A stretch of 64,000 bases of DNA from Escherichia coli (lineage in GTDB: Bacteria; Pseudomonadota; Gammaproteobacteria; Enterobacterales; Enterobacteriaceae): the NCBI RefSeq assembly GCF_045037415.1, contig NZ_CP173438.1; one strand, 5' to 3'. Numbering within the stretch: position 1 is the stretch's first letter; each line of letters opens with the position of its first letter. Shown here piece by piece: positions 59,234-63,678 of this stretch. Position numbers and translations under genes: made by a program. Under the pieces are notes generated by a model. It saw only the letters and a list, made by a program, of their open reading frames with translations. It did no database searches and had not been told where the DNA came from.

Positions 59234-60898
59234 TTAAAACGTTTCCCAGTTCTCACCGCTATCTGCCACGGCCATTTTACGCGGCGCAGCTGGCATCACG
59301 GTTTTTACCACAGCCGATGTTTCACGCTGCTGTTGCTGCTGTTGCTGAATCCGGAACACTGCCACTGCTTCGGTCAGGCGACTGGCCTGCTCTTCCAGCG
59401 CGGCGGCGGCGGCGGCAGATTCTTCCACCAGCGCGGCGTTCTGTTGAGTTACCCGGTCCATCTCAGCAACCGCTAAGCCAACCTGATCGATACCACGGCT
59501 CTGCTCATCAGAAGCAGAAGCAATTTCGCCCATAATGTCCGTCACGCGGGTCACAGCACTGACAATCTCCGCCATTGTTTCCCCGGCGCTTTCGACCAGC
59601 GTAGAGCCAACATCCACTTTCCCCACCGAGTCTTCAATCAGGCTTTTAATTTCACGAGCCGCCTGGGCGCTACGCTGGGCCAGATTACGCACTTCTCCCG
59701 CAACCACCGCAAAACCACGTCCTTGCTCACCCGCACGCGCTGCTTCAACCGCCGCGTTCAAAGCCAGAATATTGGTCTGGAAGGCAATGCCGTCAATTAC
59801 GCTGATAATATCGGCGATTTTCTGCGAACTGGTGGAGATATCACGCATAGTCTGCACCACGTTATCTACCACTTTGCCGCCGCGTTGCGCCGTTTCAGAA
59901 GCACTTAACGCCAGGTGGCTGGCCTGGCGCGCATTCTCGGCGTTCTGTTTCACCGTTGCGGTCAGTTGCTCCATGCTGGCTGCCGTCTCTTCCAGCGAAG
60001 CAGCCTGTTGCTCGGTGCGCGAAGAGAGATCGTTATTGCCGGTAGCGATTTCGCTGGCACCGCTATAGATGGCATTGGCCCCGTTGCGCACATCACCGAC
60101 GGTACGCATCAGCTCTCCCTGCATATGGCGCAAACTCTCTGCCAGTTGCCCCATCTCATTAGAGCCATCCACCTCAATCGGTTTCACCAGATCGCCGCCT
60201 GCAATATGACGAATGCTGTCAATCAGGCGATTCATTGGCGCTACCAGCGAGGCTTTAATACCGAACCAGACGGCGAAGATGACCGCCAGTACGACGATCA
60301 TCACGCCCACCAGAATCCACATCGCCTGGCTGTAGGAGGCATTGTTATCGCTGACGGCGATATCATGGAGCCGATCGTTTTGTTCCATGTAAGCCACATA
60401 CTGCTTCTCGAAACCGTCCTGATATCCCTGAGTCGGCTGATCAAAGAACTCGTTGATTTTGCCTGCACCTAACAGTTGGATCAGCTCCGCCAGCGCATTG
60501 TGATAAATATCGTAATTACGTTTGATCTCTGCCGCTGCGGCGGTGCTCTGACGCGGGTCACGCGGCAACGCTTCGTAATCCGCCCAGTTTTTTTCCGCCT
60601 GTTTCAGCGAAATACTGGCACTCTGCATCAGCTCAGCAACGGTTGAACCGCTACCAATATTATTCTGATCCATCATGTAGCGGATACCCGCGCGGTTGAG
60701 GGTGTTACGCGTCTGCAACAACGCGACCCAGCTGCCATTCAGCGTGGATTGCTGCTGGCGAATGGTTTGTAAAACAGTGAAATTTTCTTTGTCATTCTTT
60801 AAGGCATTAAAGAACAGACCGCCTGATGTCAGTTGTAAAAGGCCAAAAACGGCCAAAACCAGCAGTAAGCTGGTCACAATTTTGATACGTTTTAACAT
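59234..60898 (-). CDS. tsr: Methyl-accepting chemotaxis protein I (serine sensor) Tsr, 554 aa, C-terminal NWETF
   Basis: ORF 59234..60898; MCP signalling domain, methylation sites, C-terminal pentapeptide NWETF; 7-residue polyQ tract before the tether. Confidence 0.95.
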
Positions 60899-60928
60899 GG
60901 TTTCTCTTTCCTGTGGACCGATGCAAGA

Positions 60929-60955
60929 TTTTCGGCCTGGAAAGGAAAAACTTTA
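60929..60955 (-). promoter_or_regulatory. Sigma28 (FliA) class 3 promoter for tsr: TAAAGTTT - 11 nt - GCCGAAAA on the minus strand
   Basis: Reverse complement reads taaagtttttcctttccaggccgaaaa, close to FliA consensus TAAAGTTT-N11-GCCGATAA, about 30 nt upstream of tsr ATG. Confidence 0.75.
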
Positions 60956-61041
60956 TGAATATCCCGCGGAGATTACGCCGAGTAATTTTATTCACACTCT
61001 GAATTTAAAAAGCCATTATTTACATAAATTATTCACAATAT

Positions 61042-61067
61042 AAATATGTGATATGAATCACATATTT
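61042..61067. promoter_or_regulatory. Near-consensus CRP binding site (aaatatGTGAtatgaaTCACAtattt) in tsr-btsT divergent intergenic region
   Basis: Perfect 10-bp inverted arms with 6-bp spacer matching TGTGA-N6-TCACA. Confidence 0.6.
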
Positions 61068-61274
61068 ATCGTCACTTAAACGACGCCTTTGCCGCTCAAC
61101 CGCAAAACTGACCGCTTACATCCCTAAAATAACCACTCAGTTATTTACCTTACTTTACGCGCGCGTAACTCTGGCAACATCACTACAGGATAGCGGTCAA
61201 TTTACCTCCTCAAACGCAACGCAAACCTAGAACGGCTTCGGCCAACTATTAATCAATACATGCCAGGTTTTACT

Positions 61275-63425
61275 ATGGATACTAAAAAGATATTCAAGCA
61301 CATACCCTGGGTGATTCTCGGAATCATCGGTGCATTCTGCCTCGCGGTAGTTGCATTACGTCGGGGGGAGCACGTCAGCGCCCTGTGGATCGTGGTCGCC
61401 TCTGTATCGGTGTATCTGGTGGCGTATCGCTACTACAGTCTGTACATCGCCCAGAAGGTGATGAAACTCGACCCCACGCGCGCGACGCCTGCGGTTATTA
61501 ACAACGACGGTCTGAACTACGTTCCGACCAACCGTTACGTGTTGTTTGGTCACCACTTCGCCGCTATCGCCGGTGCTGGTCCGCTGGTGGGTCCGGTTCT
61601 CGCCGCGCAGATGGGCTACCTGCCTGGCACGCTGTGGCTGCTGGCGGGGGTCGTGCTGGCCGGTGCGGTTCAGGACTTTATGGTGCTGTTTATCTCCTCT
61701 CGCCGTAATGGCGCATCTCTTGGTGAGATGATCAAAGAAGAGATGGGACCAGTACCGGGGACTATCGCGCTGTTTGGCTGTTTCTTAATCATGATCATCA
61801 TCCTCGCCGTCCTGGCGCTGATTGTGGTTAAAGCCCTGGCCGAAAGTCCGTGGGGTGTCTTCACCGTTTGCTCAACCGTACCGATTGCGCTGTTTATGGG
61901 TATCTACATGCGCTTTATTCGTCCGGGGCGTGTGGGTGAAGTCTCTGTCATTGGTATCGTGCTGCTGGTTGCCTCTATCTACTTCGGTGGCGTGATTGCT
62001 CACGATCCGTACTGGGGTCCGGCACTGACCTTTAAAGACACCACCATTACCTTCGCGCTGATTGGCTATGCGTTTGTTTCCGCACTGCTGCCGGTGTGGC
62101 TGATCCTCGCACCGCGCGACTATCTGGCAACCTTCCTGAAAATCGGCGTTATCGTCGGCCTGGCGCTGGGTATCGTGGTGCTGAACCCGGAACTGAAAAT
62201 GCCTGCCATGACCCAGTACATTGACGGTACTGGCCCGCTGTGGAAAGGCGCTCTGTTCCCGTTCCTGTTCATCACCATCGCCTGTGGTGCGGTATCTGGC
62301 TTCCACGCGCTGATCTCTTCCGGTACGACGCCAAAACTGCTGGCTAATGAAACCGACGCGCGTTTCATCGGCTACGGCGCAATGCTGATGGAGTCCTTCG
62401 TGGCGATTATGGCGCTGGTTGCTGCGTCCATCATCGAACCGGGTCTTTACTTCGCGATGAACACCCCGCCTGCTGGCCTTGGCATCACCATGCCTAACCT
62501 GCATGAAATGGGTGGCGAGAACGCGCCGATCATCATGGCGCAGCTGAAAGACGTTACCGCACACGCGGCAGCGACCGTCAGCTCCTGGGGCTTCGTGATT
62601 TCGCCAGAGCAGATCCTGCAAACCGCGAAAGACATTGGTGAGCCTTCTGTCCTGAACCGTGCAGGTGGTGCGCCGACGCTGGCGGTAGGTATCGCTCACG
62701 TGTTCCACAAAGTGCTGCCGATGGCTGACATGGGCTTCTGGTATCACTTCGGTATTCTGTTCGAAGCACTGTTCATCCTGACCGCGCTGGATGCGGGTAC
62801 CCGTTCTGGCCGCTTTATGCTGCAAGACCTGCTGGGTAACTTCATCCCGTTCCTGAAAAAAACCGACTCTCTGGTTGCCGGTATCATCGGTACTGCGGGC
62901 TGTGTGGGTCTGTGGGGCTACCTGCTGTATCAGGGCGTGGTCGATCCGCTGGGCGGCGTTAAGAGCCTGTGGCCGCTGTTCGGTATTTCCAACCAGATGC
63001 TGGCAGCCGTAGCGCTGGTACTGGGCACCGTTGTGCTGATTAAGATGAAGCGCACCCAATACATCTGGGTAACTGTTGTTCCGGCTGTATGGCTGCTTAT
63101 CTGCACCACCTGGGCGCTGGGCCTGAAACTGTTCAGCACCAACCCGCAGATGGAAGGCTTCTTCTACATGGCAAGCCAGTACAAAGAGAAGATTGCTAAC
63201 GGTACTGACCTGACGGCGCAGCAGATTGCCAACATGAACCACATCGTTGTGAACAACTACACCAACGCGGGCCTGAGTATTCTGTTCCTGATTGTGGTGT
63301 ACAGCATCATCTTCTACGGTTTCAAAACGTGGCTTGCGGTGCGTAACAGCGACAAACGTACTGACAAAGAAACACCGTACGTTCCAATCCCGGAAGGCGG
63401 CGTGAAGATCTCTTCGCACCACTAA
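61275..63425 (+). CDS. btsT: CstA-family pyruvate/H+ symporter BtsT (YjiY), 716 aa (start MDTKKIFKHI)
   Basis: ORF 61260..63425; large polytopic CstA-family transporter. Confidence 0.93.
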   Translation: MDTKKIFKHIPWVILGIIGAFCLAVVALRRGEHVSALWIVVASVSVYLVAYRYYSLYIAQKVMKLDPTRATPAVINNDGLNYVPTNRYVLFGHHFAAIAGAGPLVGPVLAAQMGYLPGTLWLLAGVVLAGAVQDFMVLFISSRRNGASLGEMIKEEMGPVPGTIALFGCFLIMIIILAVLALIVVKALAESPWGVFTVCSTVPIALFMGIYMRFIRPGRVGEVSVIGIVLLVASIYFGGVIAHDPYWGPALTFKDTTITFALIGYAFVSALLPVWLILAPRDYLATFLKIGVIVGLALGIVVLNPELKMPAMTQYIDGTGPLWKGALFPFLFITIACGAVSGFHALISSGTTPKLLANETDARFIGYGAMLMESFVAIMALVAASIIEPGLYFAMNTPPAGLGITMPNLHEMGGENAPIIMAQLKDVTAHAAATVSSWGFVISPEQILQTAKDIGEPSVLNRAGGAPTLAVGIAHVFHKVLPMADMGFWYHFGILFEALFILTALDAGTRSGRFMLQDLLGNFIPFLKKTDSLVAGIIGTAGCVGLWGYLLYQGVVDPLGGVKSLWPLFGISNQMLAAVALVLGTVVLIKMKRTQYIWVTVVPAVWLLICTTWALGLKLFSTNPQMEGFFYMASQYKEKIANGTDLTAQQIANMNHIVVNNYTNAGLSILFLIVVYSIIFYGFKTWLAVRNSDKRTDKETPYVPIPEGGVKISSHH

Positions 63426-63474: not shown

Positions 63475-63678
63475 ATGTTTGGTAACTTAGGACAGGCAAA
63501 AAAATATCTCGGCCAGGCGGCGAAGATGTTGATTGGCATTCCAGACTACGACAACTACGTCGAGCATATGAAGACCAACCATCCCGACAAGCCGTACATG
63601 AGCTATGAAGAATTCTTCCGCGAACGCCAGAATGCGCGCTACGGCGGCGATGGTAAAGGCGGTATGCGCTGTTGTTAA
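63475..63678 (+). CDS. yjiX: Small DUF466 protein YjiX (YbdD/YjiX family), 67 aa
   Basis: ORF 63475..63678; [33 protein letters not shown]; downstream of CstA-family gene. Confidence 0.88.

Follow-up and report, generated by a model that had tools for sequence, protein, structure and literature searches.

A consensus CRP site and an array of BtsR-type direct repeats in the spacer between tsr and btsT of Escherichia coli

The serine chemoreceptor gene tsr and the pyruvate/H+ symporter gene btsT (yjiY) diverge from a 376-bp spacer in the E. coli DNA analyzed here, a stretch of 64,000 nucleotides that we refer to as the 64-kb window. The tsr coding sequence occupies 59234-60898 on the minus strand and encodes a 554-aa methyl-accepting chemotaxis protein, and btsT lies on the plus strand at 61275-63425 and encodes a 716-aa transporter of the CstA family. 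Both assignments combine the open reading frame list with the RefSeq annotation of identical DNA. When 60850-61320 was compared with complete E. coli genomes by megablast, the 100% identical matches were annotated as tsr and as "btsT: pyruvate/proton symporter BtsT", so the gene identities given in the original prediction, which had been made from the letters alone, were right, and every sequence quoted in it occurs where it had been placed. A 67-aa open reading frame directly 3′ of btsT (63475-63678) is yjiX (YbdD/YjiX family) by the annotation of a related E. coli locus; a gene of the YjiX/YbdD family is the usual partner of CstA-family transporters. The Tsr protein encoded here carries a run of eight glutamines near its C-terminal end. 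We take K-12 Tsr to be 551 aa long with a shorter glutamine run, and a CAG/CAA repeat-length polymorphism may be present.

The spacer contains the sigma-28 (FliA) promoter of tsr, as had been predicted. It lies on the minus strand at 60929-60955, reads TAAAGTTT-N11-GCCGAAAA, and departs from TAAAGTTT-N11-GCCGATAA by a single mismatch (0.03 matches expected). Genomic SELEX places a peak of the RpoF (sigma-28) holoenzyme between yjiY and tsr, and tsr is the known target there (PMC5493296); the promoter is conserved in those species in which tsr is the divergent neighbor.

Further toward btsT there is a predicted CRP-cAMP site (61040-61069) centered at 61054.5. The palindrome aaatatGTGAtatgaaTCACAtattt at 61042-61067 had been noted before; a repeat search widens it to perfect inverted arms of 13 nt, ATAAATATGTGAT (61040-61052) and ATCACATATTTAT (61057-61069). 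Its core TGTGATATGAATCACA (61047-61062) matches TGTGA-N6-TCACA with zero mismatches and is the sole perfect match in the 64-kb window, where dinucleotide shuffles lead one to expect 0.05. At up to one mismatch the same pattern occurs twice against 1.55 expected, close to chance level, and it is therefore the perfection of the core that is informative. The 22-mer at 61044-61065 differs from the CRP consensus AAATGTGATCTAGATCACATTT (AAATGTGAT-N4-ATCACATTT) at 2 of the 18 specified positions (0.01 expected). The claim of a near-perfect CRP site thus describes a consensus-grade palindrome, and the distances that accompanied it, approximately 210 bp to btsT and 145 bp to tsr, are close to those measured from the center of the site, 220 bp to the btsT ATG (61275) and 156 bp to the tsr ATG (60898). 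In the accessible literature we found neither a published position for this site nor CRP binding to it by gel shift, footprint, ChIP, or SELEX. Other readings of the palindrome were rejected. The TGTGA/TCACA core is at odds with the FNR consensus, TTGAT-N4-ATCAA; CytR requires tandem CRP sites as a rule, and a single one is present here. A match of the palindrome to the Rfam Pistol family is below threshold (20.4 bits against a gathering score of 34.5, E = 0.18) and is attributed to chance.

Between the CRP site and btsT, three direct repeats on the plus strand resemble ACCRCTYA. Positions relative to the btsT start placed at 61187 (see below) are given with each. The distal one, M1 (GCCGCTCA, 61091-61098, -96 to -89), is a putative BtsR-type repeat that matches the motif at 7 of 8 positions. 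The central repeat M2 (ACCGCTTA, 61111-61118, -76 to -69) and the promoter-proximal repeat M3 (ACCACTCA, 61132-61139, -55 to -48) are exact. The repeats follow each other at 20-21 bp center to center on one strand, with centers near -92.5, -72.5, and -51.5. Lone octamers are not rare (the window has 9 where 6.1 are expected), so the signal resides in how the repeats are arranged. The M1-M2 pair, with its 12-nt spacer, is the sole match in the window to ACCRCTYA-N12-ACCRCTYA at up to one mismatch (0.00 expected), and the M2-M3 pair, with a 13-nt spacer (61119-61131), matches the corresponding pair pattern exactly (0.04 expected). The original prediction had proposed LytTR-type direct repeats from M1 and M2 as its first and second half-sites. 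Both are real and 12 nt apart, but there are three copies rather than two, and M3, which falls outside the interval that had been marked, was missed.

The connection to BtsR, also known as YehT, comes from published work. According to PMC4222967, which cites Kraxenberger 2012, the binding site of YehT is a direct repeat whose halves are 13 bp apart, and an oligonucleotide named "yjiY YehT bs" was used by the Jung laboratory as a YehT binding site (PMC4847170). In its 58-nt core, the "yjiY YehT bs sense" oligonucleotide is identical to 61086-61143 of the window (0 mismatches), and this stretch spans all three repeats. The abstract of Kraxenberger 2012 reportedly gives the BtsR/YehT motif as ACC[G/A]CT[C/T]A. 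Only the M2-M3 pair has a 13-nt spacer, and this degenerate motif can be derived only from ACCGCTTA together with ACCACTCA; the published pair is therefore M2 + M3 (61111-61139), with M2 as its upstream and M3 as its downstream half. The earlier assignment of the repeats to the BtsS/BtsR system consequently stands as far as the operator is concerned, since M2 fits the motif exactly and M1 at 7 of 8 positions, but the pair it named, M1 + M2, shares just one half-site with the published pair and is spaced by 12 nt, not 13.

A consensus scan found no canonical sigma-70 promoter at btsT. Its three matches, all in AT-rich DNA at 60991-61057 and none at the btsT promoter, do not exceed the 1.6 ± 1.1 found in shuffled sequences and were set aside as chance. 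A conserved block at 61172-61180 on the plus strand (TGGCAACAT, TGn followed by the hexamer CAACAT) reads instead as an extended -10 element, with G61173, A61176, and T61180 conserved in 100% of the aligned sequences and the invariant A and T falling at what would be the -11 and -7 positions. The pattern TGnCAnnnT occurs 30-32 bp 3′ of M3 in 74 of 80 aligned sequences. There is no good -35 element, as expected for an activator-dependent promoter. We also considered a sigma-54 promoter on account of a conserved CTGGCA (consensus TGGCAC-N5-TTGCW, with GC 10-11 nt after GG), and rejected it; 61184-85 reads TA, and these columns carry 0.20 and 0.58 bits. From the placement of the conserved -10 hexamer, 7 nt upstream, we infer that btsT transcription starts at approximately A61187, which gives an 88-nt 5′ untranslated leader (61187-61274). 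The same leader length is implied independently by the nomenclature of the published reporter: the Jung laboratory clones 300 bp up to the btsT start codon (PMC7730263), and the reporter fragment is named PbtsT -212/+88 (PMC10653868). With the start at 61187 this fragment corresponds to 60975-61274 and includes the CRP site.

To place these elements in a wider context, one genome per species was scanned for relatives of BtsT, which yielded 80 loci at 90-100% protein identity from Escherichia, Citrobacter, Salmonella, Klebsiella, Raoultella, Kluyvera, Kosakonia, Enterobacter, Lelliottia, Leclercia, Pluralibacter, Trabulsiella, Pantoea, Erwinia, Mixta, Rahnella, and Leminorella. A composite search was applied to the 78 loci with enough upstream DNA, and a MAFFT alignment combined these 78 species with two E. 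coli haplotypes (80 sequences). With BtsT at least 90% identical throughout, these 78 species are closely related, and they do not count as phylogenetically independent. The same layout was recovered in 78 of 78 Enterobacterales species: the CRP core, approximately 28 bp, M1, 12 bp, M2, 12-13 bp, M3, approximately 32 bp, and the extended -10. The composite of the CRP core with M1, M2, and M3 was found with 0-4 total mismatches in every one of them, and shuffled regions never scored below 9. The gap between the CRP core and M1 is 28 bp in 69 species, 27 bp in 7, and 29 bp in 2. M1 and M2 are 12 bp apart in 73 of 78, and the M2 to M3 spacer measures 12 bp in 53 and 13 bp in 24 (77 of 78).

Conservation is limited to the elements, and the DNA between them is essentially unconserved. 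Mean information per alignment column is 0.11 bits in the upstream flank, 1.57 in the left and 1.96 in the right half of the CRP core, 0.21 in the gap to M1, 1.63 in M1, 0.47 in the first spacer, 1.80 in M2, 0.62 in the second spacer, 1.66 in M3, and 1.47 in the extended -10. Within the CRP site the bases contacted by CRP, GTGA and TCACA, are 99-100% conserved over the 80 sequences against 0.11-0.21 bits in the flanks, and G61048, G61050, A61051, T61058, C61059, and C61061 are invariant. A degenerate direct repeat, TTATTCACA(c/a)T(c/a)T(g/a)AAT, is present at 60988-61004 and 61029-61045, 41 bp apart. The AT-rich segment that carries it is specific to the E. coli haplotype that lacks the hpa cluster described below and has 0.11 bits per column across species.

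The three repeats differ in how well they are kept. M2 is the best conserved (perfect in 69 of 78 species), and M1 and M3 are each perfect in 55 of 78. In the strain analyzed here M1 has G at position 1, where 96% of species have A. A rival account, which we think unlikely while giving it real weight, is that only M2 and M3 are BtsR sites and that M1 is conserved for another reason or is nonfunctional in this strain. The position-1 mismatch speaks for it, as do the habit of LytTR regulators, which generally use two repeats, and the description in PMC4222967, which mentions only the direct repeat with a 13-bp spacer. Set against this, M1 is as well conserved as M3 (1.63 against 1.66 bits) and stands out from flanking spacers of 0.21 and 0.47 bits; its variation falls mostly at the degenerate motif positions 4 and 7 and at position 8, which is variable in M3 too; its 12-bp distance from M2 is held in nearly all species; and in the E. 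coli haplotype that carries hpa it is a perfect ACCGCTCA even though the adjoining spacer sequence differs. Given this conservation across 78 species, M1 is probably a genuine third BtsR site, and its contribution in K-12-type E. coli, where it is imperfect, may be small. PMC5552118 describes the BtsR motifs as "highly conserved" where target promoters from other genera were compared, and part of the conservation described here may already have been shown there. A third E. coli haplotype (GPEC102, locus L083, 250-625) has a contiguous tsr-btsT spacer in which the M1-M2 spacer sequence is of the hpa type and M1 reads GCCACTCA, with a change at a degenerate motif position and the position-1 G kept; this combination suggests recombination inside the operator region.

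The original prediction had gone on to propose that this one region integrates carbon-status and flagellar inputs in opposite directions, and the comparison speaks against that. If the CRP site were shared and bidirectional, it would also control tsr and feed carbon status into chemoreceptor expression. In this strain the geometry permits such a view: the btsT start is 132.5 bp away from the site and the 3′ end of the tsr FliA -10 approximately 125 bp, which makes the two promoters roughly equidistant, and the 125-bp distance to the FliA promoter recurs in E. albertii. Where the spacer contains a FliA-like promoter (27 loci), however, the distance from the CRP site to that promoter ranges from 69 to 131 bp, compared with 28 ± 1 bp to the BtsR repeats in 78 of 78 species. 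The identity of the neighbor varies as well. Full-length divergent tsr adjoins btsT at approximately 22 loci, tsr is 1.0-1.8 kb away at 13, hpaC takes its place at 17, and neither lies within the fetched flank at about two dozen; the module is kept in all neighbor classes, whether hpaC, tsr, or other genes. At most of the 78 species loci there is no tsr promoter within 900 bp, and the CRP site is retained.

Within E. coli itself, the spacer is a presence/absence polymorphism for the approximately 11-kb hpa (4-hydroxyphenylacetate catabolism) cluster, hpaR...hpaBC (window ~60960-61090; locus L001 1-2806; locus L082 4088-15818). The contiguous tsr-btsT spacer is found in 2750 of 5389 matching E. 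coli genomes, and the hpa cluster lies between tsr and btsT in the others. In hpa-type genomes, the hpaC-btsT spacer carries the perfect CRP core TGTGATCTCAATCACA and all three repeats, with intervening sequence that differs from the window, whereas tsr on the far side is left with 118 bp of upstream DNA in which homology to the window ends just past the FliA -35, and has no CRP site. The hpaC gene also adjoins btsT in Klebsiella, Raoultella, Pseudocitrobacter, and some Citrobacter and Enterobacter, which raises the possibility that the arrangement with hpa next to btsT came first. The fixed CRP-BtsR spacing, the variable CRP-tsr distance, and the retention of the site where tsr is absent together lead us to conclude that the CRP site is positioned for btsT only, and we regard dual control of tsr as very unlikely. 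The tsr promoter, which is of the same kind as other class 3 flagellar (sigma-28, FliA) promoters, is an independent unit that shares the spacer in this strain, a neighbor of the btsT control module and not part of it.

We therefore read the region, with a probability of roughly 0.85, as the known control region of btsT, in which a weak sigma-70 promoter with an extended -10, three BtsR-type repeats, and a consensus CRP site make expression co-dependent on BtsR and cAMP-CRP. Three elements of this reading are established in the literature: btsT depends on BtsS/BtsR, BtsR (YehT) binds in this DNA to the direct repeat spaced by 13 bp, and expression is lost when crp is mutated. Deletion of crp fully abolishes expression of a btsT reporter (PMC7730263), btsT is subject to catabolite repression, and its reported regulators are BtsS/BtsR, cAMP-CRP, and, post-transcriptionally, CsrA (including PMC7730263 and PMC10653868). 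The dependence on crp might in principle be indirect, acting through btsSR expression, pyruvate excretion, or cAMP-dependent physiology, with the palindrome bound by another factor or serving a structural role. The accessible literature on crp and btsT is genetic only, and a center at -132.5 relative to the placed btsT start is unusual for CRP activation; the class I and class II positions (-41.5, -61.5, -72.5, -82.5, or -92.5) do not accommodate it. These points are outweighed by the site itself. Both half-sites are perfect, the positions that do not vary coincide exactly with the bases that CRP contacts, GTGA and TCACA, around a fixed 6-bp spacer in otherwise unconserved DNA, and the reporter that responds to crp is carried on a plasmid, with the site inside its fragment. 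An indirect effect is, in our estimate, slightly less probable even than shared control of tsr.

[quoted passage not shown] The proximal copy would abut the poor -35 region and recruit RNA polymerase, which would then use the extended -10. As a co-activator, cAMP-CRP would be needed at its fixed position 28 bp upstream of the distal repeat, where it would most likely bend the DNA and either stabilize the BtsR array or let the C-terminal domain of the alpha subunit reach it. Transcription would then require both pyruvate and relief from catabolite repression. The length of the 28-bp gap is strictly kept and its sequence is not, which argues for a stereospecific role of CRP; how CRP would co-activate from -132.5, outside the classical class I positions, is a matter of conjecture. 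A more ambitious version, to which we give somewhat less than even odds, holds that the elements form a rigid nucleoprotein module of approximately 135 bp across Enterobacterales with three BtsR sites in register, in which M1 is functional and links the array to CRP and in which the M1 of K-12-type E. coli is weakened by its G for A. Such strains, from which the existing characterization of the system comes, also lack the hpa cluster and the ERIC-like leader insertion of other E. coli, and if this version is true, the promoter used in the laboratory may understate how this system operates in the majority of strains.

The locus, the operator DNA, and the regulators are those of the E. coli K-12 yjiY (btsT) promoter studied by the Jung laboratory, and nothing here differs from it in kind. 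That promoter was reportedly described by Kraxenberger et al. in 2012 (J Bacteriol 194:4272). The need of btsT for BtsS/BtsR and cAMP-CRP, the target gene, and the logic of a pyruvate signal AND low glucose are already published. In the accessible sources the promoter is given two repeats with a 13-bp spacer, whereas we find three evenly spaced repeats with CRP at a fixed 28 bp. Our modest additions, for which we found no match in the accessible papers, are that a third repeat is conserved, that the spacing is rigid, that the module travels with btsT, and that M1 is weakened in K-12-type strains. LytTR operators in general comprise two repeats of 9-11 nt that are 11-13 nt apart. The btsT array shares with those of AgrA (P2/P3), YpdB (at yhjX), ComE, PlnC/D, and VirR the use of 8-11 nt direct repeats, 11-13 nt apart, just upstream of a weak promoter; it differs in having three repeats in register where two are usual, and in the sequence ACCRCTYA, which is specific to BtsR. 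YpdB recognizes GGCATTTCAT, and the yjiY oligonucleotide has served as a "no binding" control for it.

CRP and a specific activator are both required, with CRP in the upstream position at about -81 to -111, at promoters such as araBAD (AraC), uhpT (UhpA), rhaSR (RhaR), and melAB (MelR). The btsT promoter behaves like a co-dependent promoter of this type, with its specific activator by the -35 region and CRP further upstream, but the architecture proposed here from the DNA places CRP further away than in any of these, at about -132.5. The importance of these observations beyond annotation is small, with some value for work on LytTR regulators and on CRP co-activation. A three-site array at a strictly fixed distance from CRP would be a clean case for CRP action from about -130, and it would allow one to ask whether a LytTR regulator can work through an array of more than two sites. 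Ready material is provided by the natural variants of E. coli, with G or A in M1, with or without hpa, and with or without the insertion in the leader.

Several features of the DNA between M3 and the btsT ATG were recorded in addition. Between M3 and the -10 there are two TTTAC units 10 bp apart, ATTTACC (61143-49) and CTTTACGCGCG (61153-63), with several columns 86-94% conserved. This segment (61143-61163) overlies the -35 region and is a poor match to TTGACA; BtsR or RNA polymerase could make contact with the DNA here. The leader is free to vary in length, from 56 to 211 nt among the compared loci, and its 88 nt in the window fold no better than shuffled sequences (z = +1.08) and match no Rfam family; we postulate no riboswitch-like element there. 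A GGA at 61188-90 was considered as a CsrA site and is not conserved, 61189 being C in 82% of sequences. Three blocks of the leader are conserved across genera: CCTCCTCAAAC (61205-61215), GGCTTCGGCC (61234-61243), which could form a 3-bp stem with a UUCG loop, and CCAGGTTTTACT (61263-61274), immediately before the ATG. These blocks may be related to the reported control by CsrA. Finally, many E. coli carry a 125-bp insertion in the btsT leader (locus L001, 2668-2792, equivalent to window ~61255-61260) that is absent from the window and lengthens the leader from 88 to approximately 211 nt. At least 80% of it is present in 2063 genomes, and it also occurs in Escherichia sp. E1V33 and E. albertii. 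The insertion contains GTGAATCCCCGGGAGCTTGCA and CAGTAAGTGACAGGGGTGAACG, which we take to resemble the two ERIC (IRU) repeat primers, so that it looks like an ERIC element; an insertion of this kind could alter post-transcriptional control of btsT.
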